Shown: piece by piece, positions 24,596 through 61,158 of the stretch
How the letters are laid out: each line of letters opens with the position of its first letter
Position numbering within the stretch: position 1 is the first letter of the stretch
From: an uncultured Pelagibacteraceae bacterium
GTDB lineage: Bacteria > Pseudomonadota > Alphaproteobacteria > Pelagibacterales > Pelagibacteraceae
DNA length: 64,000 bases
NCBI GenBank assembly: GCA_902614055.1
Contig: CACMJX010000001.1
Location: 189,189 to 253,188 of the forward strand
Direction: 5' to 3'
Made by a program: the position numbers and the translations under genes
The notes under the pieces: generated by a model
Seen by the model: the letters and a program-made list of their open reading frames with translations, nothing else
What the model was told of the DNA's origin: nothing
The model's database searches: none

Positions 24596-25018
24596 TTAGT
24601 CTAATGTTGCAATTGTCTGACCAAACTCAACAGGCTGACCATCCTCAACACTAATTTCTTTAACAATTCCATCTGTTGGGCTTGGCACATGATTCATAGT
24701 TTTCATTGCCTCAACTATCATAATTGTATCACCTTTTTTAATTTTTTGACCTATCTCTATAAATTTTTTACCGCCTGGCTCTGGAGCGAGATAAGCTGTA
24801 CCAATTATAGGTGATGTAATTTTTTTAGAGTTATTAATTGAAACCTCTTCTTTAATAACCTTCTTTTTGTTATCGGGTACTACAGCATCAATATTTTTTG
24901 ATATTCTAGATTTTGAGACTTTAACCTTAATGTCTTTTTCAGTATACTCTATTTCCGTAAGATTGAATTCCTCCAAATAATCATTTAACTCTTTAATAAT
25001 ATTTTTGTTAATTTTCAT
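24596..25018 (-). CDS. accB: Biotin carboxyl carrier protein
   Basis: EAMKT biotinylation site, SPIIGT. Confidence 0.97.
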   Translation of the reverse strand: MKINKNIIKELNDYLEEFNLTEIEYTEKDIKVKVSKSRISKNIDAVVPDNKKKVIKEEVSINNSKKITSPIIGTAYLAPEPGGKKFIEIGQKIKKGDTIMIVEAMKTMNHVPSPTDGIVKEISVEDGQPVEFGQTIATLD

Positions 25019-25451
25019 TTTTTAAGATTTCATGCATAGAGTTTATGGCTAAAATATAGCCATTTATTCCTAAACCACAAATTATACCAGTAACAACTGC
25101 GCTTATAAGTGACTTATGCCTAAAATCCTCTCTTTTATAAATATTTGATATATGAAGTTCTATAATAGGTTTTTTAAAAATACTTAAGGCATCTCTAATA
25201 GCTACCGATGTATGACTGTATCCAGCAGCATTTATTATGATTCCATCGTGTGTTTTGCGAGCATCTTGAATAATATTTACAATATCTCCTTCAACATTTG
25301 ATTGTTTGATTTCTATATCAATATCAAAATCTTTTGCACTTTTTAGACAAATTTCTTCAAGATATTTATAGTCTTTGCTACCATATTGAGTTTGTTCTCT
25401 TTCACCTAATAGATTAAGATTTGGGCCATTAATAATTAATAATTTAGTCAT
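25008..25451 (-). CDS. aroQ: Type II 3-dehydroquinate dehydratase
   Basis: INGPNLNLLG.RE, INAAGYSHTS.AIRDA, ELHISN. Confidence 0.97.
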   Translation of the reverse strand: MTKLLIINGPNLNLLGEREQTQYGSKDYKYLEEICLKSAKDFDIDIEIKQSNVEGDIVNIIQDARKTHDGIIINAAGYSHTSVAIRDALSIFKKPIIELHISNIYKREDFRHKSLISAVVTGIICGLGINGYILAINSMHEILKNEN

Positions 25452-47173: not shown

Positions 47174-48190
47174 CTAATTTATTTTTAATTTTTCAAATTT
47201 TTTTGATTTAACTGATTTTTGTGCAGCTTCAGCTAAAATTATAGACTTTCTTCCATCTTCAAAAACCCCTCTGGGTTTGATATTTTTTTTGCAAAAGTTT
47301 GCAAGATCAGATAGTTGCAACCTAAAAGCTTCTGCATATCTTTCTATAAAAAAATGAAGGAGAGGGGATTTATTATTTGTCGAATTTTTTAAAAAGAGAT
47401 TCGTTTCTGTATCTCTTTTATTATCTGATATCATCATTCCTTTTGTTCCAAAAAGCTCAACTCTTTGGTCATAACCAAAACTACAATGTCTCGAATTAGT
47501 TATAATGCATTGCACTCCTTTTTTTGACTTAAGCACTGTAGTAGCAAGTTCATAGTCTTTTATTTTATTAAATCTTTGGTCTGATATGTTACTGCCAGTA
47601 GCAAATACTGATATAAATTCATCTGAACCCAAGTAGTATCTTGCCAAATCAAAATCATGTATCATCATATCTTTAAAAATTCCTCCAGAACTTTTTAAAT
47701 AAGATAACGAAGGAGGAGCAGGGTCGCGACTAGTAATAATAATTTTCTCTAGTTTACCTATTTTATTTTTCAATAAATTCTTTTTAAGTAAATTATGTCC
47801 AGGATCATATCTTCTATTAAATCCTATTTGAACTTTAGGATTAAGTTTTTTAATTTTTGTTAAAGATGAATTAATTTTTTTTAAATTTAAATCTAGTGGT
47901 TTTTCACAAAATATTACTTTTTTATATTTTACACCTTTTTCAATAAATTTTAAATGTGTAGAAGTAGAAGAGGCTATAAAAATACATCTAATTTCATTAT
48001 CTTTAAAAGCTATATCTGGATTATTTATTGAAATAGCATTAAATCTTTTTGAAATTTTGTTTAATAAATTTTTATTTAAATCAAAAACATATTTTAAATC
48101 AAATTCACTATTTTTTCTTAAATTATCAGCATGCATCTGGCCAATTCTACCAAGACCAAACAGAGCAGTTTTTATTTTATTTTTACCCAT
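47174..48190 (-). CDS. iolG: myo-inositol 2-dehydrogenase (IolG/IdhA)
   Basis: G.GRIG..H, CEKP, GFNRRYDP, TSRDPAPP, SGGIFKDMMIHDFD, NSR...GYDQRVE; start moved to ATG 48190. Confidence 0.9.
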   Translation of the reverse strand: MGKNKIKTALFGLGRIGQMHADNLRKNSEFDLKYVFDLNKNLLNKISKRFNAISINNPDIAFKDNEIRCIFIASSTSTHLKFIEKGVKYKKVIFCEKPLDLNLKKINSSLTKIKKLNPKVQIGFNRRYDPGHNLLKKNLLKNKIGKLEKIIITSRDPAPPSLSYLKSSGGIFKDMMIHDFDLARYYLGSDEFISVFATGSNISDQRFNKIKDYELATTVLKSKKGVQCIITNSRHCSFGYDQRVELFGTKGMMISDNKRDTETNLFLKNSTNNKSPLLHFFIERYAEAFRLQLSDLANFCKKNIKPRGVFEDGRKSIILAEAAQKSVKSKKFEKLKIN

Positions 48191-49317
48191 CTTTTTTTTC
48201 TGTTTGAAACTTTGCATGCTTCAATAAATTTTGCAGTTTCCAGTCCTTCGTCTTCATTGGGGTAAAAATACCTTTTTTTTGCATTATTTTTCAAAGAATT
48301 TGCAAATTCACGATAAATATTTGCAAATGCATCCAAATAACCTTCAGGATGACCAAATTTTAATCTAGAAAATTTTTTAGACAATTCAGCATTAAAAAAA
48401 CCTCTTTCAATAAATTTTACTGCACCTTTAGATGGATTAAGTTTTAAATAGTTTGGATCGTTTTGAACCCATTCCAAACTTCCTTTTGTTCCAAAAATTC
48501 TTATTCGTAATCCATAAACTCCACCTCTAGCCATCACACTTGTCCAAAACATTCCTTTAGCTCCATTATTAAAATTGATCATTACTTGAGCATTGTTGTC
48601 CATTTTAACTTTATTTGAAACTTGTTTAATATCTGCAAAAATAGTTTCACCTTTTAAACCTGATATATAAGTTGCCATATGATATGCATGTGAGCCAATT
48701 TCGTTTAAGACCGCTGAAGCTCCAACAATATTTTTATCTATTTTCCATTTAAACTTTTTCTTTGCATTTTTTTGTGAAATACTCTCTCCATCTGACCAAT
48801 CCTGAACGTATTCAACGTTTACGTATTCAACTTTTCCAATTTTACCTTTTTCAACCAATACTTTCGCCTCTCTAACCATAGGATAAGCAGAGTAATTGTG
48901 TGTCAAAGCATACTTAATTATTTTATTTGATTTTATTTTTTTAAATAATTTTTTAGCTTGAGTAAGATTTCCAGCAAATGGTTTATCAGAAATTACATGT
49001 ATATTTTTATCAATAAATTTTTCTGCAATAATTTGGTGACTTGAAGGAGGTGTCATTATTGCTACAACATTAATACCATCTTTTCTTGCCGCTTCTCTTT
49101 CAGCCATTTCTCTAAAATTTGAATAGCATCTCTCTTTTAAAATACCTAGGCTTTGACCAAAGCTTTTAGATAGTTTTGAATTTCTCGAAAAAACACCAGC
49201 AACTATCTCATATTGATTATCAAATCTTGATGAAATTCTATGAACATGACCAATCCAAGATTTTGGACCACCTCCAACTACGCCAAGCTGAATTTTTTTT
49301 CCTTTAATTAATCTCAT
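48172..49317 (-). CDS. Gfo/Idh/MocA family NAD(P)-dependent sugar/cyclitol oxidoreductase
   Basis: LGVVGGG..WIG.VHR, SDKP, THNY.AYPMVR, EIGSHA, GHPEGY..AFANIY; start moved to ATG 49317. Confidence 0.88.
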   Translation of the reverse strand: MRLIKGKKIQLGVVGGGPKSWIGHVHRISSRFDNQYEIVAGVFSRNSKLSKSFGQSLGILKERCYSNFREMAEREAARKDGINVVAIMTPPSSHQIIAEKFIDKNIHVISDKPFAGNLTQAKKLFKKIKSNKIIKYALTHNYSAYPMVREAKVLVEKGKIGKVEYVNVEYVQDWSDGESISQKNAKKKFKWKIDKNIVGASAVLNEIGSHAYHMATYISGLKGETIFADIKQVSNKVKMDNNAQVMINFNNGAKGMFWTSVMARGGVYGLRIRIFGTKGSLEWVQNDPNYLKLNPSKGAVKFIERGFFNAELSKKFSRLKFGHPEGYLDAFANIYREFANSLKNNAKKRYFYPNEDEGLETAKFIEACKVSNRKKRWVKIK

Positions 49318-49348
49318 GATTAAATATATCTTAACAAATAAAAAATTT

Positions 49349-50251
49349 ATGTCAGTAAAATTAGGTATAGCACCAATTGCTTGGAGTAATGATGACATGC
49401 CTGAGCTAGGCGGAGATACTCCTCTAGAACAATGTTTGTCAGAGGCAAGTCAGGCTGGATTTGTTGGGATTGAGTCAGGTGGTAAATTCCCAAAAACATC
49501 TGAGGAATTATTACCAAAATTAGAAAAGTATAACTTAAAATTATGTTCTGGTTGGTATAGCGGAAATCTAAGAAAAAATTCTGTTGAACAAGAAAAAAAT
49601 TTAATTCAAGACCAACTTAAATTATTTAAAGATTGTGAAGCTCCATGTATCGTTTTTGCTGAAGTTTTTGGTTCAATACAGGGTGATCCAACAAAAAAAC
49701 TTTCCAATAGACCAAAGATGACGGACCAAGAATGGAAAGATTATTGTACAAAAATTTCTGAGCTTGCAAAGTATCTTGAAGATGAAGGTATGCCTTTAGC
49801 TTATCACCATCATATGGGTACAGTAATAGAAACAGAAGAAGAAACTATTAGATTACTAGAAAACACAGATGATAGTGTAAAATTAACTTTAGATACTGGT
49901 CATATGTTATTTGCTAAGGGAAACTCAATTAATATAATTAATAAATTTAAAGAAAGAGTAATTCACATACACTGCAAAGATATTAGAGAAGAAGTATTAA
50001 AAAAAGCCCTTTCTGAAGATTTGAGTTTTAGGGAAGCTTTTTTAGAAGGTGCTTTTACGGTACCTGGCGATGGGTGTATCGACTACAAACCTCTGTTTGA
50101 TATTCTAAAAAAAAATAATTATCAAGGTTGGCTTGTGGTAGAGGCTGAACAAGATCCTAAAAAAGCTAATCCACTTGAATACGCTATCAAGGGTTACAAA
50201 TATATTACTGATACTTTAAAGAAATCAAATTTAGAGATTAATAATCTATAA
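49349..50251 (+). CDS. iolE: myo-inosose-2 dehydratase
   Basis: GIAPIAWSNDDMPELGG, YHHHMGT, DTGH, HCKD, FTVPGDG, VEAEQDP; start moved to ATG 49349. Confidence 0.96.
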   Translation: MSVKLGIAPIAWSNDDMPELGGDTPLEQCLSEASQAGFVGIESGGKFPKTSEELLPKLEKYNLKLCSGWYSGNLRKNSVEQEKNLIQDQLKLFKDCEAPCIVFAEVFGSIQGDPTKKLSNRPKMTDQEWKDYCTKISELAKYLEDEGMPLAYHHHMGTVIETEEETIRLLENTDDSVKLTLDTGHMLFAKGNSINIINKFKERVIHIHCKDIREEVLKKALSEDLSFREAFLEGAFTVPGDGCIDYKPLFDILKKNNYQGWLVVEAEQDPKKANPLEYAIKGYKYITDTLKKSNLEINNL

Positions 50252-51202
50252 TTTTACTTTTTTACTGTCTTCAAGTTTACCATCAAAAAAATCAAAAATA
50301 TTTTGAATAGTTTCTTTTGCCATTCTTGTCATGCATTCCTCAGTAAATGCTGCAGCGTGAGGACTAAGGAAAACTTTGTCATTTTTTAATAAAGGATTAT
50401 CAGCCTCTGGAGGCTCTACCTCAAATACATCAATTCCTGCTCCAAAAATCAAATTTTCATTCAATGCCCTATCTAAATCTTTTTCATTTATAATACCGCC
50501 TCTTGCAGCATTTATGATGATGCAGTTTTTTTTCATCGTTTTTAAAAGTTCGTAATTTATAATATTTTTAGTTTGATCAGTTAAAGGTATATGGAGTGAG
50601 ACAGCATCCATACCTTTAATAGCCTCTGATAAATCTTCAACTTTTTTACCACCCATTTTGCTTATTGTTTCTGAATCTACAAATGGATCGTAAACAAAAA
50701 CGTTCATTTCAAACCCTAAACATCTTTTAATCAACACTTTTCCTATTCTTCCAAATCCAGCAATAAGAATGTTTTTATCCCAAATCTCTATAGTTTTTGG
50801 TAATTTATTTCGTTCAGTAAATTTTCCACTTTTGACTGAATGGTCATACATACTCTTTCTTTTTGAGATACTTAAAAGCATGAAAAGAACATGTTCTGCA
50901 ACTGCCACAGCATTTGCTGTTGCGGTTATTGCTACGTCGATGTTTCCTTTTTTACAGCTATTTAAATCAATATTATCGTAACCAACTCCATGTCTTGAAA
51001 TTATTTTAAGGTTTTTTGCATTTTCAATTGCCTCAGCAGGTAATATAGATGTTCTTAAAGAAACTGCATCTGCATCTACAATTTTTTGTTTCACATTTTC
51101 AACACTTAAATCTTCAACAACCTCGTAACTATAGTCGCTATTACTTTTTAATAATTCCATACCTTTTTCATGAATAGGTTGGACAATGAGAATTTTTTTC
51201 AT
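50246..51202 (-). CDS. D-2-hydroxyacid dehydrogenase (short SerA-like, no ACT domain)
   Basis: RHGVGYDN, GFGRIG, NAARGG, DVF..EP, SPH.AA. Confidence 0.88.
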   Translation of the reverse strand: MKKILIVQPIHEKGMELLKSNSDYSYEVVEDLSVENVKQKIVDADAVSLRTSILPAEAIENAKNLKIISRHGVGYDNIDLNSCKKGNIDVAITATANAVAVAEHVLFMLLSISKRKSMYDHSVKSGKFTERNKLPKTIEIWDKNILIAGFGRIGKVLIKRCLGFEMNVFVYDPFVDSETISKMGGKKVEDLSEAIKGMDAVSLHIPLTDQTKNIINYELLKTMKKNCIIINAARGGIINEKDLDRALNENLIFGAGIDVFEVEPPEADNPLLKNDKVFLSPHAAAFTEECMTRMAKETIQNIFDFFDGKLEDSKKVKL

Positions 51203-51216
51203 AATTTTAAAAAAAA

Positions 51217-52206
51217 TTATATTAGTCTAGCAAGATCTCTTTTACTATTTCTAAATGTTGGAAGTGGATATTTAAAAGCATACTTTCTTGGAATACATTT
51301 ATTCTTTGCCTTTTCCCACAAAGCAATCCATTGCTTATAGTTGTGGATAGTAATATTTTTTTTATTTTTACTTCTTACATAAAAATTGGGCAAAGGTTTC
51401 CTACCAGATGGGGTTCCAGCTCTATTGTATCTTAAATCAGCGCTAATTCTAAAATCATTGGATCTATTAGGCAATGAACAGTGAATGGAGTGTTTGTGCA
51501 AAATAATAATATCGCCAACATTAGCCTCCAGAAAAACTGGCTTGTAATTATTAAGTAGTTTACTATCTTTTATTTCTACCTGACCTCTATATCCTGATAT
51601 ATGATTCAATAGTCCCAATTTATTAATTTCTTTTACTGTAATCATGCATCCATTTTTTTTAGTAGTTTTAGTAAATGGAATCCAAACAGTTACCATATCA
51701 GTTAATCTTTGTCCCAACGATGATAATACTGCTGCATCCTGATGCCATGGAGTTCTGCCTGAGAGACCATCGTGAACAGAATGTTTAGGTAATTTATTTT
51801 CGGGTTGTTTAATTCTTGTATTTTGAACTGGATTTGAAAGAATTTCTGGCCCTAATAATTTTTCAACTACATCCAAGATTTTTTTGTGATTAATTAAATT
51901 CCATAAAGATTGAGATGCAAAATAATCACTATCTTTCTTCACGTGATCTCTTGGAAGTCTAGTATTAAAATATTGATCAAGATCATAAATTCTTAGTTTT
52001 GAAATGTATGTGTATTTTTTTCTAAAGCTATATTTAAAAATTTTTTCTTTCATATGCACAGGAGCAAATTTATGAACTAAATTGTCCATTACATATTCCA
52101 TGTCATTTAAAATTGGTTTTAAATCTTTGTTGAAATTAAGAACATTTCTTACTCTTAGGAAGCCATCTCTATCTAAAATACTCTTTAATTTACTCTTAAT
52201 TTGCAT
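51217..52206 (-). CDS. PhyH-family Fe(II)/2-oxoglutarate dioxygenase
   Basis: TPWHQD, WIPF....NGCM, GD....H...H.S.PNRS...R...DLRY. Confidence 0.88.
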   Translation of the reverse strand: MQIKSKLKSILDRDGFLRVRNVLNFNKDLKPILNDMEYVMDNLVHKFAPVHMKEKIFKYSFRKKYTYISKLRIYDLDQYFNTRLPRDHVKKDSDYFASQSLWNLINHKKILDVVEKLLGPEILSNPVQNTRIKQPENKLPKHSVHDGLSGRTPWHQDAAVLSSLGQRLTDMVTVWIPFTKTTKKNGCMITVKEINKLGLLNHISGYRGQVEIKDSKLLNNYKPVFLEANVGDIIILHKHSIHCSLPNRSNDFRISADLRYNRAGTPSGRKPLPNFYVRSKNKKNITIHNYKQWIALWEKAKNKCIPRKYAFKYPLPTFRNSKRDLARLI

Positions 52207-52211
52207 AGTTA

Positions 52212-53072
52212 TTAATATTTTAGCAAATAATTCGAATCATGAAAAGATGTAAGCATTCTTTTTTTCGTCGCAACAATATGTGGATGATATTCAAAATTTT
52301 TATATTTCCATATCACTGGCTTGTTAAGAGCATAACTTCCATAAATAAAAAATCTTTTTGGACAGTTTTTTTCCTTAAATCTATTTACTCCGTGATAAGA
52401 ATTTGGAGTAGATTTAAAGAAAATTACACTTCCCTGTTTTGGTGTGAATTCCTTTAATTTATCAAGTTCATTAATCTTAGGAAACCTTCTAAAGCTTTTT
52501 CTAAGGTTTTTGTTTACTTTTTTCTTATATAAAGTAAGTGATCCTCCATTTTTTTTTGGTATATTGGTTAAATAGATCAAAAAATTATATAGCCTATTCA
52601 CATCATCTCTATGTGGTCTCAATCTATATCCTCCTTTAGATACTGAGAAATCAATATCTAAATTTAAATTTGGGTTTTTATAATCTTTACCTAGTAGTTT
52701 TTTTAGCTCTTTGGAATTTACTTTTCTTTTTAGTGTATATTTTTTTTTATTAAATTTTTTTGGTTTAAACAAACTTTCCCAGGTATTTGCCTTAAATTCT
52801 GTTTTAAATTTTTTATCAATTTTTTTATAAAAGGATTTTGTATTGAAAGTAGCAAAAAGTTTTTTTGAGATTTTAGAACTTGAGATATATTTGTTGAAAT
52901 TTTTTGATCCTTTATTAATCCTGCTTCTGCCACCCATAATCATATCATCAAAACTTTTTGAATTAGTTATTTCTTCAATTAAAGAATTACACACTTTTTT
53001 ACTGATTATTTGTTCTCCAACAATAACCGGGAAGTTTGATTTAATTTTTTTTAGTTTACTAATTTTCAGCAT
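52212..53072 (-). CDS. Fe(II)/2-oxoglutarate oxygenase (prolyl-hydroxylase-like)
   Basis: H-x-D (PHRDD), LIYL, GGSL.L, SYHGV, distal R..IY. Confidence 0.8.
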   Translation of the reverse strand: MLKISKLKKIKSNFPVIVGEQIISKKVCNSLIEEITNSKSFDDMIMGGRSRINKGSKNFNKYISSSKISKKLFATFNTKSFYKKIDKKFKTEFKANTWESLFKPKKFNKKKYTLKRKVNSKELKKLLGKDYKNPNLNLDIDFSVSKGGYRLRPHRDDVNRLYNFLIYLTNIPKKNGGSLTLYKKKVNKNLRKSFRRFPKINELDKLKEFTPKQGSVIFFKSTPNSYHGVNRFKEKNCPKRFFIYGSYALNKPVIWKYKNFEYHPHIVATKKRMLTSFHDSNYLLKY

Positions 53073-54017
53073 TTAGCTGTACATGCCCTCTTTTACTTTA
53101 ATCATTTTGTACATAAGGTCATTTAATGGTGTGGCTATTCCATGTTTTTTTCCTATTTTAGACACGGCGCCACTTATGAAATCAATTTCAGTTTTTCTTT
53201 TATAAAGCACATCAAAAGCCATTGAAGACTTATTTGTTTGTTTTGAATCAACAATTTTATTAAACATAAATAAACACTCATCTTCAGAAACATTAACACC
53301 ATCTGCTAAAGCAACGTCTCTTGTTTCTAAAATTATCTCTTTACCTAAACTTCTAGAAACGTCGTTGGCATTATTATTTATGTAAAGATCGGTATGATGT
53401 AGATCAAAAATAGCTGAAAGTGGGCCTATTGCGGTTAAAGCAAAAAGTTTCATCCATTTTCTTTTTTTTACATCCTCAGCTGCAATCATTTCTAAATTAT
53501 GAGCAGTAAATGTGTCTGCAATTTCAGTTATTCTATCTGAAATCCCACCATCATATTCTCCAATCCAAGAGGGTAGAGCGGCATGATTCATAATATGACC
53601 AGGGCCTAAGATATTAGATGCTTGAGTTGTTGTCCCCCCAATTACTTTTTCATCGCCAACAATACTTTTAATTATAGCTTCATGTCCAATTCCATTTTGA
53701 AAAGACATAAAAACTGTTTTATCGTTAATAATGTTTTTAATACTTTTTAAGGCAGGCTCTAGAGCTGTTGCTTTACACATGACTATCACAGCATCAACTT
53801 TTCCAATTGTAGAGGGATCCGATGTTGCTGGTACTTTTATAAATCTATCACCACCATGACCATTCATCTTTAGACCATTTTTATTTATTTCATCAACATG
53901 CTCTTTCCAAACATCAATGAGCGTTACATTTAGACCTTTTTCTGCTAGTAAGCCTCCAAATAGACAACCCATTGCCCCTGCACCAAGAACTGCAACTTTT
54001 AGATCTTTATTATTCAT
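53073..54017 (-). CDS. Ketopantoate reductase (PanE/ApbA) family protein
   Basis: GAGAMG, CKA, QNGIG, W.KL, SSM..D....TEID.I.G. Confidence 0.85.
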   Translation of the reverse strand: MNNKDLKVAVLGAGAMGCLFGGLLAEKGLNVTLIDVWKEHVDEINKNGLKMNGHGGDRFIKVPATSDPSTIGKVDAVIVMCKATALEPALKSIKNIINDKTVFMSFQNGIGHEAIIKSIVGDEKVIGGTTTQASNILGPGHIMNHAALPSWIGEYDGGISDRITEIADTFTAHNLEMIAAEDVKKRKWMKLFALTAIGPLSAIFDLHHTDLYINNNANDVSRSLGKEIILETRDVALADGVNVSEDECLFMFNKIVDSKQTNKSSMAFDVLYKRKTEIDFISGAVSKIGKKHGIATPLNDLMYKMIKVKEGMYS

Positions 54018-54036
54018 TTTTAAAGTCGAAATATAT

Positions 54037-54069
54037 TTATGTAAAAAAATTATGCAATATATTATGTAA
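54037..54069. repeat. Three direct repeats TTATG(T/C)AA in the divergent panE-like/DUF1907 promoter region
   Basis: TTATGTAA at 54037, TTATGCAA at 54050, TTATGTAA at 54062. Confidence 0.4.
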
Positions 54070-54080
54070 CTAATTTATTT

Positions 54081-55049
54081 ATGGAATTAAAAATAGAAAA
54101 AGGAATTTTCAAAAAATTTAAGTTAGAAGAAATATCAAACGCATTAGAAAAAGGTCTGTCAAAGAATTATGACAGTGTAAAAGCAGAAGTAATTGATTGT
54201 CCAAATTTAAGAAACTGGGATTGTCCGTCTGAAGGCATGAGTGGTAACCAAAGGATAATCGATGTTGGAGGGGAGCCTTACATGCATGATCCTAAATATC
54301 TTGGAACAGAATTTGATTATTTTGAAATCTCTAAAATGATTGGATCAGAAAGATCGTACGCACTTGGCGCAGGATCTGGTGCAATGTCTTGCCTGGATGG
54401 ACACAGTGGAGAATTGGTTATAAATGAAAATTTTATTACAAAAGAAAATAAATCTTTAATTGCTAGGGTAGGAAAAGATAAAGAATGTATAGTAGAGGAC
54501 TATACTGCAAGCAAACATGGCGGGCTGGGTAATGTTTATTATTCAGATGGTGTTAAAGGAAAAGTTATATGTTTAAAGATAAAAAAAAGAATTGGAAAAC
54601 AAGGTTCATTACCTCAATCAATAAGAGCAGTACTTTCAGAAAATCTTAAAATTGGGAATAAAGATCATATTGCTCTTGCTGGTGTATTTAGAGTTTTGAA
54701 TGGAAAAATAAGATCACATGTACAACCAGATTATAAGGATATAAAACATGAATATTATGACCCACAATTGATGAAATGCACAAAAGATTTTCTACAATTT
54801 TATGAGCCTGTTGGACCAAAATTACAATGCTATACTGTTTTATGGACTGGTGATCCAACGGGAGGAGAATTAAATTTAAGAGAGTCCGGTGAGCATACTC
54901 ACTTTCACTCATATGAGCATAAGAATGATGCTGGACATTATCATTTTGACGTTTCACCAGATGAAATTGAATATGAAGGGTACTTTAATATTGCACAAGA
55001 AGTATATAGAGTGAATAATATCTATAAAGAATTAAAAAATATAAAATGA
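54081..55049 (+). CDS. DUF1907 / PTD012 (C11orf54-like) Zn-dependent protein
   Basis: N-terminal LEEI..ALEKGL..NY..V...VIDCPNL...G..RIIDVGG.PY and C-terminal EHTHFHS....GHYHFD..PD..EY.GYF resemble the recalled human C11orf54 motifs. Confidence 0.88.
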   Translation: MELKIEKGIFKKFKLEEISNALEKGLSKNYDSVKAEVIDCPNLRNWDCPSEGMSGNQRIIDVGGEPYMHDPKYLGTEFDYFEISKMIGSERSYALGAGSGAMSCLDGHSGELVINENFITKENKSLIARVGKDKECIVEDYTASKHGGLGNVYYSDGVKGKVICLKIKKRIGKQGSLPQSIRAVLSENLKIGNKDHIALAGVFRVLNGKIRSHVQPDYKDIKHEYYDPQLMKCTKDFLQFYEPVGPKLQCYTVLWTGDPTGGELNLRESGEHTHFHSYEHKNDAGHYHFDVSPDEIEYEGYFNIAQEVYRVNNIYKELKNIK

Positions 55050-55861
55050 AAAAGATTTATACTTGGGCCGCTCAACCTGCCAACAGAACACTTACAGTTG
55101 ATGATCTTAAAAAAGCTAAAGGAAAAAAAAAATTTACTCAAGTCACAGCTAATACAATAGATGAAGCTGAGGCCGCAGAGAAGGCTGGGTTTGACATGAT
55201 AATCTGCAATGCTTTTAATGTGAAACATGTGAGAGAGGGATCAAAAAATCTATTTTTAACTGCTGCGTTAGTATTAAATAAGTTTGTCACTTCGGAAGAT
55301 ATCATGAGAGGAGCGTTTGAAGCCCTAGAAAATGGAGCTGATGCTGTAATGACACCTAGAAGTATGAAGATAATAGAAATGCTGGCTAATGAGGATGTTC
55401 CAGTTATGGGACATCTTGGTTTAGTTCCAAGAAAATCTACTTGGATTGGTGGTTTAAGAGCAGTAGGAAAAAATAGTGAAGAGGCACATGAACTTTTTTT
55501 AAAATTTAAAAGTTTAGAAGATGCAGGAGCTTTTTCTGCCGAATGTGAGGTTATCCCAGAAAATGTAATGGGAGAAATCTCAAAAAGAACGAATATAGTT
55601 ACAGTATCTTTAGGTTCAGGAAAGAAAGCTGACGTAATGTATCTGTTCATGGAAGACATATGTGGAGATACTTTAAATCCTCCAAGACATTCAAAAGCTT
55701 ATGGAAATTTATTAAAATTAAAAAATGAAATAAAAGTTGAGAGAGTTCGAGCTCTTAAGGCATTCAAAAAAGATTCAATGGCAGGAAAATTTCCAGGAAA
55801 AAAACAATCTTCAAATTTAAATAAAAAAGAGTTCGAGTCTTTTCTTGATAAGCTTGATTAA
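55046..55861 (+). CDS. Divergent PanB-like (ketopantoate hydroxymethyltransferase fold) protein
   Basis: VPVMGHLGLVP, GG.RAVGK, LEDAGAF..ECEVIP, LGSG..AD retained; GDS, DMPF and K.EG motifs missing. Confidence 0.8.
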   Translation: MKKIYTWAAQPANRTLTVDDLKKAKGKKKFTQVTANTIDEAEAAEKAGFDMIICNAFNVKHVREGSKNLFLTAALVLNKFVTSEDIMRGAFEALENGADAVMTPRSMKIIEMLANEDVPVMGHLGLVPRKSTWIGGLRAVGKNSEEAHELFLKFKSLEDAGAFSAECEVIPENVMGEISKRTNIVTVSLGSGKKADVMYLFMEDICGDTLNPPRHSKAYGNLLKLKNEIKVERVRALKAFKKDSMAGKFPGKKQSSNLNKKEFESFLDKLD

Positions 55862-56649
55862 TAAGTTTCAGATTCTTTTTTGCTTATTGAGCCTTTCATT
55901 TTTTCAACAATTGCTTTAGCACCTGCGCTCATTGCTCTTTGATCTGCACCAATAGTTACAAAGTTAAAACCTTTATCGATCATTTTTTGTGCGTACTCTG
56001 GTGTTCCATTATGAATTCCTGCAAAGATATTATTTTTTTTGGCATGCTCTAATATTCTTAATATTTCTGAATAAGCTTTTGTATCTTCTGCTCTGTCAAA
56101 CCCAGGCTTTTCTCCTATTGCTAAACTTAAGTCAGCTGGACCAATATATATTCCATCTACGCCATCTGTTGACATAATCTCATCTAATTTATCTAATGAC
56201 TCTTTTGTTTCAATCATAGCTAATTTTAAAATTTCATCATTTGCATGGTCGGCATAATCAGCTCCACCATAAATCAATCCTCTAACAGGACCAAAACTTC
56301 TATATCCTCTTGGGGGATACATACAAGCTTGAACAAATCTTTCCGCCTCTTCTTTGTTACTTACCATTGGACATATAATTCCATAACAACCAGCGTCTAA
56401 AATTTTCATTATTTGGCCTGGTTCATTCCAATTTACTCTAGCAAGAGGAGTTACATCAGTTGATGAAATTGTTTGAAGCATAGGAAGTGCATTTGTGTAA
56501 TCAACAAGTCCATGTTGCATATCTACAGTTAGAGAGTCCCAACCTTGATGCGCCATAACTTCTGCTGATACAGTGCTTGGTATTTGTAACCAACCATTTA
56601 CAACAGGCTTACCATCAGCCATCATTTGTTTGACTTTATTTTTTCTCAT
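55858..56649 (-). CDS. HpcH/HpaI class II pyruvate aldolase
   Basis: VDMQHG, ARV, LDAG..GIICPMV, YPPRG.RSFGP, MIET, IGPADL. Confidence 0.92.
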   Translation of the reverse strand: MRKNKVKQMMADGKPVVNGWLQIPSTVSAEVMAHQGWDSLTVDMQHGLVDYTNALPMLQTISSTDVTPLARVNWNEPGQIMKILDAGCYGIICPMVSNKEEAERFVQACMYPPRGYRSFGPVRGLIYGGADYADHANDEILKLAMIETKESLDKLDEIMSTDGVDGIYIGPADLSLAIGEKPGFDRAEDTKAYSEILRILEHAKKNNIFAGIHNGTPEYAQKMIDKGFNFVTIGADQRAMSAGAKAIVEKMKGSISKKESETY

Positions 56650-58091
56650 TAATAATTGAGACCGAAGTGAGTGTACTTTACGTTCAAATAATCTTTGATA
56701 GCCATTGAACCACCTTCTCTTCCATAACCTGTTTGTTTTATTCCTCCAAAAGGTACTTCAGCAAATGCAATTGTTGGATGGTTCACTGCGCATGTTCCAG
56801 TTTCCATTTTTTCTGAGACTTTGTGTGCTTTTTCTAAAGAATTTGTGTAAATATAGCTTGCTAAACCAAGGTCATTGTCATTTGCTCTTTCCACAACTTC
56901 ATCTGTGTCTTTAAAAGTAAGCAATGGAACTAAAGGTCCAAAGGGCTCTTCTTTAGCAATTGTAAAATTATCTTTAACATTGTCAAAAACAGTTGGTTCA
57001 TAGAAATATCCTTTATTAAAACCAGCTGGTCTCTTCCCCCCACATAAAACCGTTGCTCCCTCACTTTTAGTTTTTTCTACTAATGCCTCTATTTCATTTA
57101 ATCTTTTTTCTGTAGTTAAAGGTCCTAGAATTGTATCTTCATCCATTCCGTTACCAACTTTCAGTTTAGTAACCTTTTCAACTAATTTTTTAGCAAATTC
57201 ATCTTTTTTACTTTCATGAATATAAAATCTTGCTGGTGATATACAAACTTGACCATTATTTCTAAATTTAGCAGTAATTGCCATGTCGGTTACCTTGTTA
57301 ATATCTACGTCGTCAAAAACAATGAAAGGTGAATGGCCACTTAATTCCATTGTAACTCTTTGGACTTTTTCAGCAGCTTGTTTTAAAATTAGTTTTCCAA
57401 CTCTTGTTGAACCAGTAATAGAAACTTTTTTCACTATATCAGATGATATTAATTGAGATGAGATTTTAGCTGGATCACCAGATAATAAATTTACTACTCC
57501 TGGAGGAACGCCCGCATCATTTATAATATTCATAAGTTCCATTACACTACCTGGAGTAATTACATCAGGCTTACAAATTACTGAGCATCCTGCAGCTAAA
57601 GCAGTGGAAATTTTTCTTGAGGATAAAACTATTGGAAAGTTCCATGGTATTAATCCAGCAACAACTCCAACAGGTTCATATTTTACATACATTCTTGTAT
57701 GTTCAAATCTACTTTCAACTATCTGACCATAAATTCTTTTTGTTTCCTCAGAGTTCCACTCAAAAATATCTGCAGCTCCTCCAACTTCCCCTTTTGCTTC
57801 TGATAGTGGCTTTCCAACTTCTAATGTTAACCACTTAGCCAAAACATCAGTTCTCTCTCTCATAAGATCGGCAATTTTTCTTATAATTTTTGATCTTTGC
57901 CAAGGTGGAGTATTTCTCCAAACTTCAAGACCTTTTTCTGCAGACTTAAGTGCTTTGTTTACATCTTCTTCACCTGCTTTAGATGCCTTACCTAAAACTT
58001 CTTCTGTTGCAGGATTTAAAACATCATAAGTTTCATTATTTTGTGATGCTTGCCATTTGCCATCAATGAATTGTCCAAATTTGCTATACAT
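56649..58091 (-). CDS. NAD(P)-dependent semialdehyde dehydrogenase (succinate/alpha-ketoglutarate semialdehyde type)
   Basis: PWNFP, TGST.VG, MEL.GH.P, KFRNNGQVCISP, EEPFGP, PFGG.K.TG.GREGG. Confidence 0.9.
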   Translation of the reverse strand: MYSKFGQFIDGKWQASQNNETYDVLNPATEEVLGKASKAGEEDVNKALKSAEKGLEVWRNTPPWQRSKIIRKIADLMRERTDVLAKWLTLEVGKPLSEAKGEVGGAADIFEWNSEETKRIYGQIVESRFEHTRMYVKYEPVGVVAGLIPWNFPIVLSSRKISTALAAGCSVICKPDVITPGSVMELMNIINDAGVPPGVVNLLSGDPAKISSQLISSDIVKKVSITGSTRVGKLILKQAAEKVQRVTMELSGHSPFIVFDDVDINKVTDMAITAKFRNNGQVCISPARFYIHESKKDEFAKKLVEKVTKLKVGNGMDEDTILGPLTTEKRLNEIEALVEKTKSEGATVLCGGKRPAGFNKGYFYEPTVFDNVKDNFTIAKEEPFGPLVPLLTFKDTDEVVERANDNDLGLASYIYTNSLEKAHKVSEKMETGTCAVNHPTIAFAEVPFGGIKQTGYGREGGSMAIKDYLNVKYTHFGLNY

Positions 58092-58146
58092 AATTTTTAT
58101 TTTGTGGTTTATTAGTTGAATATTTGAAGAGAATATAACTAGAAAA

Positions 58147-59991
58147 ATGAGAAAAATAAAGCTTACTTGCGCACATGCCTTAGTTAAACACTTAATTGCA
58201 CAGAAAATCTATATAGATGGTAAGGTTGAACCTTTATTCCCAGGAGCTTTTGGTATTTTTGGACATGGAAATGTAGCATGTATTGGGCAAGCTTTAGAGG
58301 AAAATAAAGATAAACTTCCAACATTTAGAGGTCATCATGAACAAAATATGGCTTTAACAGGCATTGCTTTTTCAAGAGCAAAAAGAAGAAAGCAAATTTT
58401 TATTGCAACAAGTTCGGTTGGACCAGGATCTACAAATCTAGTTACAGCATCAGCAGTAGCGATGAGTAATAGATTGCCAATTTTATTTTTACCTGGAGAT
58501 ACTTATGCAAATAGAATGCCAGATCCAGTTTTGCAACAGGTTGAACACTTTTCAAATCCAGGAATGACAGCTAACGACTCATTTAAACCAGTTACAAAAT
58601 ATTTTGATAGAATTACAAGACCAGAGCAAATATTACAGTCACTTCCTCAAGCAATTCAAACCATGTTAGATCCAGCAGATTGTGGTCCTGCGTGTTTATC
58701 TTTATGCCAAGATGTACAAGGAGAAACATTTGAATATCCCGAAGAATTCTTTAAAGAAAGAGTTCACAATATTAGAAGACCCAAGCCAGATGATTTTCAA
58801 ATTAAACAAGCTGTTGTAAGAATTAAGAATTCCAAAAACCCAATTATAATTTCAGGTGGAGGGGTATTTTATTCTGACGCCATGGAAGAGTTAAGCAATT
58901 TTGCAGTTAAACATAATATACCAGTAACTCAAACAGTTATGGGATACTCAACAATGAAAAGAGATCATTCTCATTTTGTAGGACCAATAGGAGGACTTGG
59001 AGGAAAGGCTGCAAATAATTTAGCTAAAGAAACTGATTTAGCAATTTGTATTGGTACAAAATTAGCTGACTTTACAACTGGATCATGGGCGAATTTTGAA
59101 AATCCTCAATTTAAGTTAGTTTCAATTAATATTGCTAGACATGATGCTAATAAACATTTAGCAGACGCAGTTATTGGAGATGCAAAAGTATCATTAATAG
59201 AATTATCAAATGCACTTGGAGATTGGAGATCATCTGATAATTGGCATAAAAAATCACAAGATGAGCTTAGGTCTTGGAATGAATATGTAGATAAAGAGAG
59301 TGGTCCAACTAATCAAGATTTACCAAGTTATGCTCACGCTGTTGGAGCAATTTATAGGAATTCAGATCCAACTGATATAGCTGTTACAGCAGCAGGAGGT
59401 TTGGTCGGAGAAGTTGTTCAAGTTTGGCGGCCAAAAGAGTTAAATACACATGAGACAGAGTGGGGATTTAGTTGCATGAGTTATGAAATTTCCGGTGCTC
59501 TTGGAATTAAAATGGCAAACCCAGATAAAGATGTCATTGCATTTGTAGGAGATGGTTCATATTTATTAAACAATTCAGACATATATTCTTCAGTATTAAC
59601 GAATAACAAATTAATAATTATCGTGTGTGATAATGGAGGTCATGCTGTTATAAATAGACTTCAATTGTTCAAGGGTGGAAAAGAATTTAATTGTTTATTT
59701 AATTCATCAAATGTTCAAGATTTAAAAGAAGTTAATTTTGCTCAACATGCTGCAAGTATGGGTGCAAAATCAGAACATGTTTCTAGTATTTCAGAATTAG
59801 AAGAAGCATTTAAAAGAGCTAAGCAGTCAGAAATCACTTATGTCATTTCAATCAAAACACATAGTTATGAATGGCTTGAGGGATCTGCTTATTGGGAAAG
59901 TCCTACGCTTGAAATACCAACATCAAAAGAAAATGAAGAAGCATTAAAACTCCATAAAGAAGGAAAATCAAAACAGAGACAAGGTGTTTAA
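58147..59991 (+). CDS. iolD: ThDP-dependent 3D-(3,5/4)-trihydroxycyclohexane-1,2-dione acylhydrolase
   Basis: FGIFGHGNV, PDPVLQQVE, YFDRITRPEQ, E.GFSCM.YEI.G, GDGSYL, INRLQ. Confidence 0.96.
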   Translation: MRKIKLTCAHALVKHLIAQKIYIDGKVEPLFPGAFGIFGHGNVACIGQALEENKDKLPTFRGHHEQNMALTGIAFSRAKRRKQIFIATSSVGPGSTNLVTASAVAMSNRLPILFLPGDTYANRMPDPVLQQVEHFSNPGMTANDSFKPVTKYFDRITRPEQILQSLPQAIQTMLDPADCGPACLSLCQDVQGETFEYPEEFFKERVHNIRRPKPDDFQIKQAVVRIKNSKNPIIISGGGVFYSDAMEELSNFAVKHNIPVTQTVMGYSTMKRDHSHFVGPIGGLGGKAANNLAKETDLAICIGTKLADFTTGSWANFENPQFKLVSINIARHDANKHLADAVIGDAKVSLIELSNALGDWRSSDNWHKKSQDELRSWNEYVDKESGPTNQDLPSYAHAVGAIYRNSDPTDIAVTAAGGLVGEVVQVWRPKELNTHETEWGFSCMSYEISGALGIKMANPDKDVIAFVGDGSYLLNNSDIYSSVLTNNKLIIIVCDNGGHAVINRLQLFKGGKEFNCLFNSSNVQDLKEVNFAQHAASMGAKSEHVSSISELEEAFKRAKQSEITYVISIKTHSYEWLEGSAYWESPTLEIPTSKENEEALKLHKEGKSKQRQGV

Positions 59992-60000
59992 AAACTTTTT

Positions 60001-61158
60001 ATGAATAAGGTTTTTAAAATTGGTTTAATAGGTTGTGGACATATCGCTGAAACATATTTTAGAGCTGAAAAATATTTCAATAATATTAAAATTGTTAAAT
60101 GTGCAGATATTAATTTGAAAGCTGCAAAACGTTGTGCATTAAACTATGGAATAAAATTTTTAACTGTAAATGAACTGCTAAAAGATAAAGAGGTTGAAAT
60201 TATTTTAAACCTTACAATTCCAAAAGCGCATTATTCAATATCTAAAAATGCTTTAACAAATGGAAAACATGTATACTCTGAAAAGCCATTAGCAATAAAT
60301 TTAAAAGATGGAAAAGATTTAATAAATTTATCAAAGAAAAAAAAATTATATTTAGGTAATGCTCCTGATACATTTTTGGGTGGTGGAATTCAAAAATCAA
60401 AAGAACTAGTTGAAAAAAACATAATTGGAAAAATTAAATTAGGCAATGCAGTTTTTGCTTTTCCTGGCATTGAGTCTTATCACCCAAACCCTGAACCTTG
60501 GTTTGCAAAAAATGAGGGAGGTCCCGTTATTGATATGGGACCGTATTATATTACTGCTTTAGTAAATCTGTTAGGACCTGCAAAAAAAGTAACTAGCACC
60601 ATCATTCAAGGACAAAAATATAGGACAATTGGAATAGGACCAAAAAAAGGAAAAAAATTTAAAGTAGAATGTCCAACTACTTATTTATCTACAATTACTT
60701 TTAAAAATAACTCCGTTATAAGATTAACATTATCATTTGATGTAATAGCTCATCAAAGAAACCACATTGAATTATATGGAGAAAAGGGTTCAATTATTGT
60801 TCCTGACCCAAATATGTTCGGTGGATCAGTGTTAACCTGTAATAAATTAGGTGAAAATTGGAAAGAATATAAGACTACAAAAATGCCTTTGGGACGTATT
60901 AATATTAGAACACAAAGTTCTAGAGCTAACGAAGCACCAACTAATGCAAACTACCGAGGAGCAGGATTATCTGAAATGGCATATTCAATTGAGAATAAAA
61001 AAAAACATTTATGTAATGGTGAGATATCTTTACATGTATTAGAAATTATAACTTCTATTATGAAAGCAGCAAAATCTGGAACATCTGTGTCAATTAATAC
61101 AAACTGTGCAAAACCAAAAAAGTTTTTAGAAATAGATGCAAAGAATTTACTTAAATAA
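60001..61158 (+). CDS. Gfo/Idh/MocA family oxidoreductase
   Basis: IGCG.I...Y, NLTIP.AH, SEKP, APDTFLG, GGP..DMGPYY, PDPN.FGG. Confidence 0.9.
   Translation: MNKVFKIGLIGCGHIAETYFRAEKYFNNIKIVKCADINLKAAKRCALNYGIKFLTVNELLKDKEVEIILNLTIPKAHYSISKNALTNGKHVYSEKPLAINLKDGKDLINLSKKKKLYLGNAPDTFLGGGIQKSKELVEKNIIGKIKLGNAVFAFPGIESYHPNPEPWFAKNEGGPVIDMGPYYITALVNLLGPAKKVTSTIIQGQKYRTIGIGPKKGKKFKVECPTTYLSTITFKNNSVIRLTLSFDVIAHQRNHIELYGEKGSIIVPDPNMFGGSVLTCNKLGENWKEYKTTKMPLGRINIRTQSSRANEAPTNANYRGAGLSEMAYSIENKKKHLCNGEISLHVLEIITSIMKAAKSGTSVSINTNCAKPKKFLEIDAKNLLK

Follow-up and report, generated by a model that had tools for sequence, protein, structure and literature searches.

The closest described relative of the gene analyzed here is human C11orf54 (PTD012, BKGD). 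It decarboxylates 3-keto-L-gulonate, with H217 and R263 as essential residues and the C-terminal D315 in a helping role, and in rotifers BKGD is fused to CRYL1 (PMC12337341, available part). The original prediction for our locus had given the same function for the human protein, in agreement with the published work. Bacteria are not mentioned in the main text of that paper, as far as it was available. Bacterial DUF1907 proteins have already been noted in print (PMC12435205), and in the accessible part of PMC3597751 DUF1907 appears as a table entry only. The literature on DUF1907, on C11orf54/BKGD, and on SAR11 inositol catabolism yielded no functional description of bacterial members; the SAR11 myo-inositol passage in the available part of PMC12789548 is a medium recipe.

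We analyzed a stretch of 64,000 nucleotides from an uncultured Pelagibacteraceae bacterium (contig CACMJX010000001.1), hereafter called the window, in which a DUF1907 gene lies close to inositol genes (Table 1). A profile search with the window protein matched Pfam PF08925 (DUF1907) with 196.5 bits against a cut-off of 25, covering positions 1–285 of the 285 in the profile. This bears out the predicted family membership. In a phmmer search, human PTD012 (1XCR) was the sole PDB match (E = 1.4e-36, residues 14–313). The AlphaFold model of the protein (pLDDT 96.9) was compared with solved structures by Foldseek; 1XCR came first (E = 8.4e-31, TM 0.84), followed by acetolactate decarboxylases (TM 0.39–0.47). 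Thus, the acetolactate-decarboxylase-like fold that had been proposed for the family is recovered in the predicted model. No match to the acetolactate decarboxylase family was obtained in Pfam or NCBIfam, and the Arg/Glu catalytic pair of those enzymes is replaced by His/Arg.

In the alignment, H272, H274, and H286 correspond to the human zinc ligands H266, H268, and H278 and are invariant in 68 of 68 rows, in agreement with the predicted His cluster. H213 aligns with human H217, and R267, which is shifted by an insertion of two residues, aligns with R263. The insertion separates the catalytic Arg from the first zinc-binding His and belongs to the signature R-x-S-G-E-H-T-H, which marks the branch of the window protein. 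The C-terminal Asp (human D315) is absent from the window protein, which ends in YKELKNIK. We confirmed at the sequence level that 54081–55049 is an intact Pelagibacter DUF1907 gene with three zinc histidines and both essential catalytic residues. Its GC content (0.32) and GC3 (0.19) equal those of the neighboring genes, which argues against a recent arrival. Contigs from four seawater RNA-library runs span the gene, such contigs being no proof of transcription, and the stretch is present in 14 RNA runs from eight studies.

Table 1. Features of the DUF1907 locus in the window
Feature	Position	Strand	Basis and remarks
iolE, myo-inosose-2 dehydratase	49349..50251	+	TIGR04379, 414 bits vs cut-off 290
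D-2-hydroxyacid dehydrogenase, host cluster, other insert flank	50246..51202	-	Pfam
PhyH-family dioxygenase, cassette gene	51217..52206	-	Pfam
2OG-Fe(II) oxygenase, cassette gene	52212..53072	-	Pfam; absent from 6 of the L046–L058 loci
PanE/ApbA-like dehydrogenase (partner)	53073..54017	-	Pfam/NCBIfam, residue alignment
AT-rich 63-bp spacer, divergent panE-like/DUF1907	54018..54080	.	Sequence
DUF1907 (C11orf54/BKGD-family) gene	54081..55049	+	ORF of 322 aa, uninterrupted from ATG to TGA
DUF1907 codons of H213; R267; H272; H274; H286	54717; 54879; 54894; 54900; 54936		
Degenerate PanB-like gene, optional	55046..55861	+	NCBIfam; ATGA overlap with DUF1907
HpcH/HpaI aldolase, host inositol cluster, insert flank	55858..56649	-	Pfam
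Aldehyde dehydrogenase, host inositol cluster	56649..58091	-	Pfam
iolD, ring-opening hydrolase	58147..59991	+	TIGR04377, 785 bits vs cut-off 715

Next to DUF1907 lies the gene of a PanE-like dehydrogenase, which was absent from the earlier reading of the locus. Of 110 Pelagibacteraceae loci, 105 have a divergent panE-like gene next to DUF1907; the remaining five are short loci from another genus, and in four long loci from two such other genera the distance is 6–9 kb. A promoter scan of the spacer in the window gave a result no better than chance. We surveyed 80 genomes, all at least 90% complete, of which five were included as known positives and the rest taken by list number, and which are kin rather than independent samples. 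The panE-like orthologue and DUF1907 were both present in the same 33 genomes and both missing from the other 47, one 29% match (G489) aside. Searching metagenomes by PanE motifs gave 80 loci; DUF1907 was present in 26 of them, comprising 11 SAR11-type loci, two fusions, and 13 tandem panE–DUF1907 operons on non-SAR11 contigs with a GC content of 46–67%. The partner occurred without DUF1907 in 27 of the 80, with more than 1.5 kb on both flanks, and one alphaproteobacterial genome (G155) holds three partner copies, none linked to its DUF1907 gene. At least 16 proteins, corresponding to 16 of 25 matches to a fusion query, combine DUF1907 and ApbA in one chain (verified by Pfam on six). Their PanE domains are 36–54% identical to the window partner and cluster with the SAR11 partner at a support of 100/97 in a careful 40-row tree. 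These data show that the steady partner of this DUF1907 branch is a PanE-like dehydrogenase, either adjacent or fused.

The residues K72, N98, K176, N180, S244, and E256 have been described for ketopantoate reductase (PMC3478992, available part). The window partner keeps five of them, as K82 (K72), N108 (N98), K190 (K176), S265 (S244), and E277 (E256). The position of N180 is occupied by Leu194, and by Leu in SAR11, versus Asn in the operon and fused forms. In NCBIfam, the partner passes only subfamily models. Asp35 stands at the end of strand 2, where Asp is invariant in 18 of 18 rows, and from this residue the partner is probably NAD-linked.

The original prediction placed DUF1907 inside an inositol cluster. 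The proximity of iolE and iolD agrees with this, but the direct neighbors are PanE-like and PanB-like genes rather than iol genes, and a nearby iolG-like gene scores 344, below the cut-off of 355. In the window, the block phyH-2OG-panE-DUF1907-panB sits between hpaI and the 2-hydroxyacid dehydrogenase gene. In 13 genomes iolD is present and DUF1907 absent; in the five of these examined at the locus, aldh, hpaI, and the 2-hydroxyacid dehydrogenase gene are contiguous beside iolD, with no insert. Thus, the block is an insert and not a core iol step. The PhyH gene occurs in 32 of 32 DUF1907-bearing Pelagibacteraceae versus none of 47 others, and is absent from G155. Across DUF1907 loci, the 2OG gene may be present or absent, and so may the PanB-like gene, which many loci lack. 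In the PanB-like gene, the E. coli motifs ADLP and VKIEGG, which we take to be the usual metal-binding motifs, are replaced by AALV and VMTPRS. A canonical panB is present elsewhere in five of five genomes, scoring 303–308 bits versus about 110 for the cassette copy.

A few side observations concern the same neighborhood. One genome (G504) has four PanB-family matches, and a GC-rich contig (L185) carries a PanB copy 55% identical to the cassette gene near a PanE-like gene. A small ORF of 128–139 aa with no Pfam match follows DUF1907 in many loci (e.g., L116:9084-9470) and is absent from the window; another of 166 aa, likewise with no Pfam match, lies beside iolE (L119:14481-14981). The cassette order is inverted or duplicated in L008 and L014, which are likely single-cell amplification chimeras.

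The predicted tie to inositol catabolism was sustained. All 33 DUF1907 carriers possess iolD, compared with 13 of 47 non-carriers, so that 33 of 46 iolD-bearing genomes carry DUF1907; exclusion of the unpublished genome G480 leaves 12 iolD-only genomes among 46 non-carriers and the same conclusions. In 28 of the 33 carriers the association could be mere physical linkage, the genomes being kin, whereas the five carriers with the cassette far from the iol genes still contain both iolD and iolE. An independent context is provided by four Woeseia-like loci (L134, L136, L144, and L146), in which a TonB receptor–TRAP–panE–DUF1907 operon is divergent from an RpiR regulator gene and an iolG above the cut-off. 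Given the IolR motif GGAA-N6-TTCC (PMC2597717, available part), we found 2, 2, 2, and 1 similar boxes, respectively, each with one mismatch, at shuffle p values of 0.007, 0.002, 0.009, and 0.137, the last not above chance. As these regions are related, they count as one case. We conclude that the inositol tie of the cassette is real, as seen in its dependence on iolD.

The inositol clusters themselves deviate from the described pathway. IolB/KduI was found in none of the 80 genomes, with a positive control found in 6 of 14, and IolC above the cut-off in none of five. This suggests that SAR11 clusters lacking IolB and IolC encode a kinase-free lower inositol pathway, so far undescribed. In the place of IolB and IolC, these clusters (47174–61158 in the window; L125–L130) contain, besides iolE and iolD, an aldehyde dehydrogenase, an HpaI aldolase, and a D-2-hydroxyacid dehydrogenase.

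The rarity of the family in bacteria, also part of the original prediction, was confirmed. PF08925 was detected in 64 of 251 Pelagibacterales genomes sampled, in one of 400 other Alphaproteobacteria (G155), in none of 400 genomes of a phylum sample, and in none of 14 control genomes. The closest relatives of the window protein are from Pelagibacteraceae (all 80 kept out of 206 genome loci), and the hosts outside SAR11, five being named among the 120 matches listed, are Woeseiaceae, Arenicella, and an unplaced gammaproteobacterium. In viral contigs, neither DUF1907 nor the fusion was found, but only two distant PanE loci. A DUF1907 piece in L124 was rejected as a shadow frame that disappeared in tblastn. 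In G155, DUF1907 (L083) lies near a hydantoinase-like pair, an iolG-like gene, and a fatty-acid-desaturase-family gene, which presumably resembles rhizopine MocD.

A carefully built tree of 60 selected rows, with the two insertion columns dropped, places the window protein inside a 33-row branch (support 100/99) and outside the animal-type branch, the latter being defined by a GRD-like C-terminus since the trees do not include the human sequence. The 33-row branch contains SAR11 and other bacteria, PanE fusions (100/99), and PhyH-like fusions; bacteria amount to 19 rows in all, on one side of a 66/85 branch. A quick tree of 95 rows gave the same grouping. The root is assumed, and transfer may have gone in either direction. 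In P0128, P0284, and P0247, a PhyH-like domain is fused to DUF1907, as weak matches (E 0.001–0.008); P0284, from the branch of the window protein, is a EukProt sequence. Two PanE–DUF1907 fusions (L131 and L132) lie on single-gene contigs with non-coding flanks. This transcript-like layout suggests that hosts of the fusion may be protists. Spliced-leader and long poly-A motifs were not found in these two contigs, and introns were not evident in the fragments P0334 and P0335. The gene exchange between bacteria and eukaryotes that had been proposed for the family is plausible.

Further fusions and relatives were encountered on the way. P0148 joins DUF1907 to a 3HCDH domain, as in rotifers. The AT-rich, gene-dense contig L141 (24% GC; P0165, P0309, P0311) carries a DUF1907–PanE fusion, next to which lie a DegT-type aminotransferase gene and further genes that seem to concern glycans; the contig is giant-virus-like by impression only and has no match in the viral contigs. 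A stand-alone 3HCDH gene in L217 (G000:C5) stands in a different context, which looks to us like carnitine catabolism.

Possible substrates were approached through genes linked to the pair and to the partner. TRAP or LIV-type transporters adjoin the DUF1907–partner pair in some loci. Among 31 loci selected around partner relatives lacking DUF1907, the type II dehydroquinate dehydratase AroQ occurs in 11 and the shikimate dehydrogenase AroE in four. P0313 and P0314, on megabase contigs, are triple fusions of the partner domain, a histidine phosphatase, and AroB. A LIV transporter of the same family as in the partner-relative loci also flanks DUF1907 in L114–L117, with a binding protein 47–54% and permeases 52–58% identical. 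By contrast, neither aroQ nor aroE was found in the nine DUF1907-bearing loci compared; aroQ is single copy in five of five carriers, and the housekeeping aroQ of the window (25008–25451) adjoins accB-accC, as named from the sequence. A close PhyH orthologue is missing from the Woeseia-like operons and G155. For the linked TRAP and LIV binding proteins, and likewise for the two dioxygenases, even the nearest solved structures were too remote for a ligand to be suggested. The literature found under the name "quinate" did not support this acid as a product of phytoplankton and contained nothing on a link between quinate and dehydropantoate. In their own right, nine loci (L159, L164, L167, L171, L182, L185, L190, L196, and L206) combine a PanE-like gene with AroQ, AroE, CoA transferase, and acyl-CoA dehydrogenase, and also with MaoC, a hydratase, SDRs, an FAH-like gene, and a LIV ABC transporter; this looks like an uncharacterized catabolic pathway for quinate or shikimate.

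Our preferred explanation, to which we assign a probability of roughly 0.55, is that DUF1907 decarboxylates a 2-hydroxy-3-oxo acid likely made by the PanE-like partner, and that the pair thereby channels an imported polyhydroxy acid into the inositol pathway with no kinase step. The partner would oxidize a hydroxyl group of the imported acid with NAD+. Zinc on the three histidines would then bind the resulting hydroxy-keto acid, CO2 would be released, and the enediolate would be protonated by H213/R267. For the class of substrate, a quinate- or shikimate-like cyclitol carboxylate is a tentative candidate. With such a compound, the two 2OG dioxygenases might hydroxylate the ring CH2 groups beside the carboxyl-bearing carbon, the partner might oxidize one new hydroxyl, forming a tertiary hydroxy-keto acid that resembles acetolactate, and loss of CO2 from this ring acid would yield an inosose for IolE and IolD. 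A cyclitol would explain the presence of the dioxygenases, acid transporters, and IolR boxes, as well as why IolE/IolD are needed. The position at which PanE-family enzymes act is C2 (PMC3478992, available part). Production of a 3-oxo acid therefore requires a new regiochemistry, an isomerization, or a diacid, and the cyclitol substrate asks for oxidation at the beta carbon.

The same property speaks for a different substrate. The partner may oxidize C2 of an acyclic sugar acid or a tartrate-like diacid, the 3-oxo acid being formed by isomerization or already present, and DUF1907 would then decarboxylate it; the inositol tie would reflect shared niche and regulation instead of flux. C2 is the normal PanE position, PanE-type enzymes accept a wide range of 2-oxo acids (bioRxiv 10.1101/2024.01.05.573888, available part), and the substrate of human BKGD is itself acyclic. 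A sequence from 2-oxo to 3-oxo acid to decarboxylation is known for tetronates and for ribonate, with the ribonate decarboxylase unidentified (PMC13753588, available part), and the cassette is separable from the iol genes. Nevertheless, an OtnI/OrnI-type isomerase and a kinase for the product are both absent from the cassette, and this explanation leaves the two dioxygenases, the AroQ/AroE/AroB links, and the presence of iolD in all five unlinked carriers unaccounted for. We regard it as possible but rather doubtful. That DUF1907 is instead a core step of a lower inositol pathway free of IolB and IolC, acting on the product of IolD, would fit the absence of these two enzymes and the iolD of every carrier. 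It is unlikely in view of the 13 of 46 iolD-bearing genomes that lack DUF1907, with contiguous flanks and no insert in the five examined.

The original prediction pointed toward the decarboxylation of 3-keto-L-gulonate, as in the glucuronate–xylulose route of animals, and all essential BKGD residues are indeed present; moreover, the partner might serve as a non-orthologous L-gulonate dehydrogenase. This role was not upheld. A stand-alone CRYL1-type (3HCDH_N) gene is absent from all four near-complete carriers, in which the sole 3HCDH_N match is a frame of 740–750 aa. The window protein lacks the C-terminal Asp, carries the two-residue insertion, and belongs to a branch separate from the animal type. 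MIOX was not found in five genomes, in a search that had no positive control match. Judging from its residues and genomic setting, the window protein is thus probably not a 3-keto-L-gulonate decarboxylase, and the animal-like route is improbable. The Pfam names of both genes flanking DUF1907, PanE and PanB, would fit a block that makes or degrades pantoate. Such a function is very improbable because a canonical panB exists elsewhere in five of five genomes, the cassette copy is degenerate and missing from many loci, and pantoate gives no 3-oxo acid.

Returning to the decarboxylation of a 2-hydroxy-3-oxo acid by the pair, its most far-reaching form is speculative. It would comprise an undescribed route from a quinate/shikimate-type cyclitol carboxylate to an inosose, through 2OG hydroxylation, NAD-linked oxidation of a beta carbon by the PanE-fold enzyme, and Zn-dependent loss of CO2 on the BKGD relative, with neither aromatization nor ATP. 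This route might be common to roughly one SAR11 genome in four, to Woeseia-like gammaproteobacteria, and probably to protists of the sea, and its dehydrogenase–decarboxylase pair might have been exchanged as one unit between SAR11 and lineages of eukaryotic type. If true, the cyclitol route would join hydroaromatic acids to inositol catabolism. The analysis names a small candidate enzyme set for a carbon source of the PF08925-bearing quarter of the sampled Pelagibacterales genomes. It also gives the bacterial branch of this family its first functional lead, the human member itself having been assigned only in 2025. It also pairs this family, by fusion and operon, with a second, unrelated dehydrogenase, PanE-like instead of CRYL1, and brings to light a separate pathway hole in the SAR11 inositol clusters that lack IolB and IolC.

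Compared with the described iol module, the window shares iolE, iolD, and an iolG-like gene, and the Woeseia-like operon shares iolR-iolG and IolR-like boxes. Differences are that IolB was not found in the 80 genomes, nor IolC above the cut-off in five, and that DUF1907 and the PanE-like gene are no part of that module. The Ltn2D/Den2D-OtnI-OtnK-OtnC, Rib2D-OrnI, and ApnO routes (PMC13753588, available part) resemble our proposal in leading from a polyhydroxy acid via a 3-oxo acid to decarboxylation; they employ other folds, the tetronate route is kinase-first, and the window cassette has neither isomerase nor kinase. Alpha-acetolactate decarboxylase (EC 4.1.1.5; 4BT2, 5XNE) has a similar fold, a Zn-His3 site, and a 2-hydroxy-3-oxo acid as substrate for decarboxylation, but is only 10–16% identical and uses Arg and Glu where the window protein and BKGD have His and Arg (PMC12337341, available part). 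Human BKGD is most similar, with a full-length DUF1907 domain, 32% identity in the structural match to the predicted model, the three zinc histidines, and the equivalents of H217 and R263. The window protein differs from it by its separate branch, the R-x-S-G-E-H-T-H insertion, H-x-Q/N-P where BKGD has H-x-M-P, the missing C-terminal Asp, and a bacterial cassette with dioxygenases and a PanE-like partner rather than CRYL1. BKGD, too, works downstream of a dehydrogenase and may be joined to it in one chain, and the CRYL1–BKGD fusion of rotifers (PMC12337341, available part) parallels the PanE–DUF1907 fusion, the two dehydrogenases being unrelated. CRYL1 plus BKGD amounts to a split oxidative decarboxylation, to which we liken the proposed action of the PanE-like partner and DUF1907.
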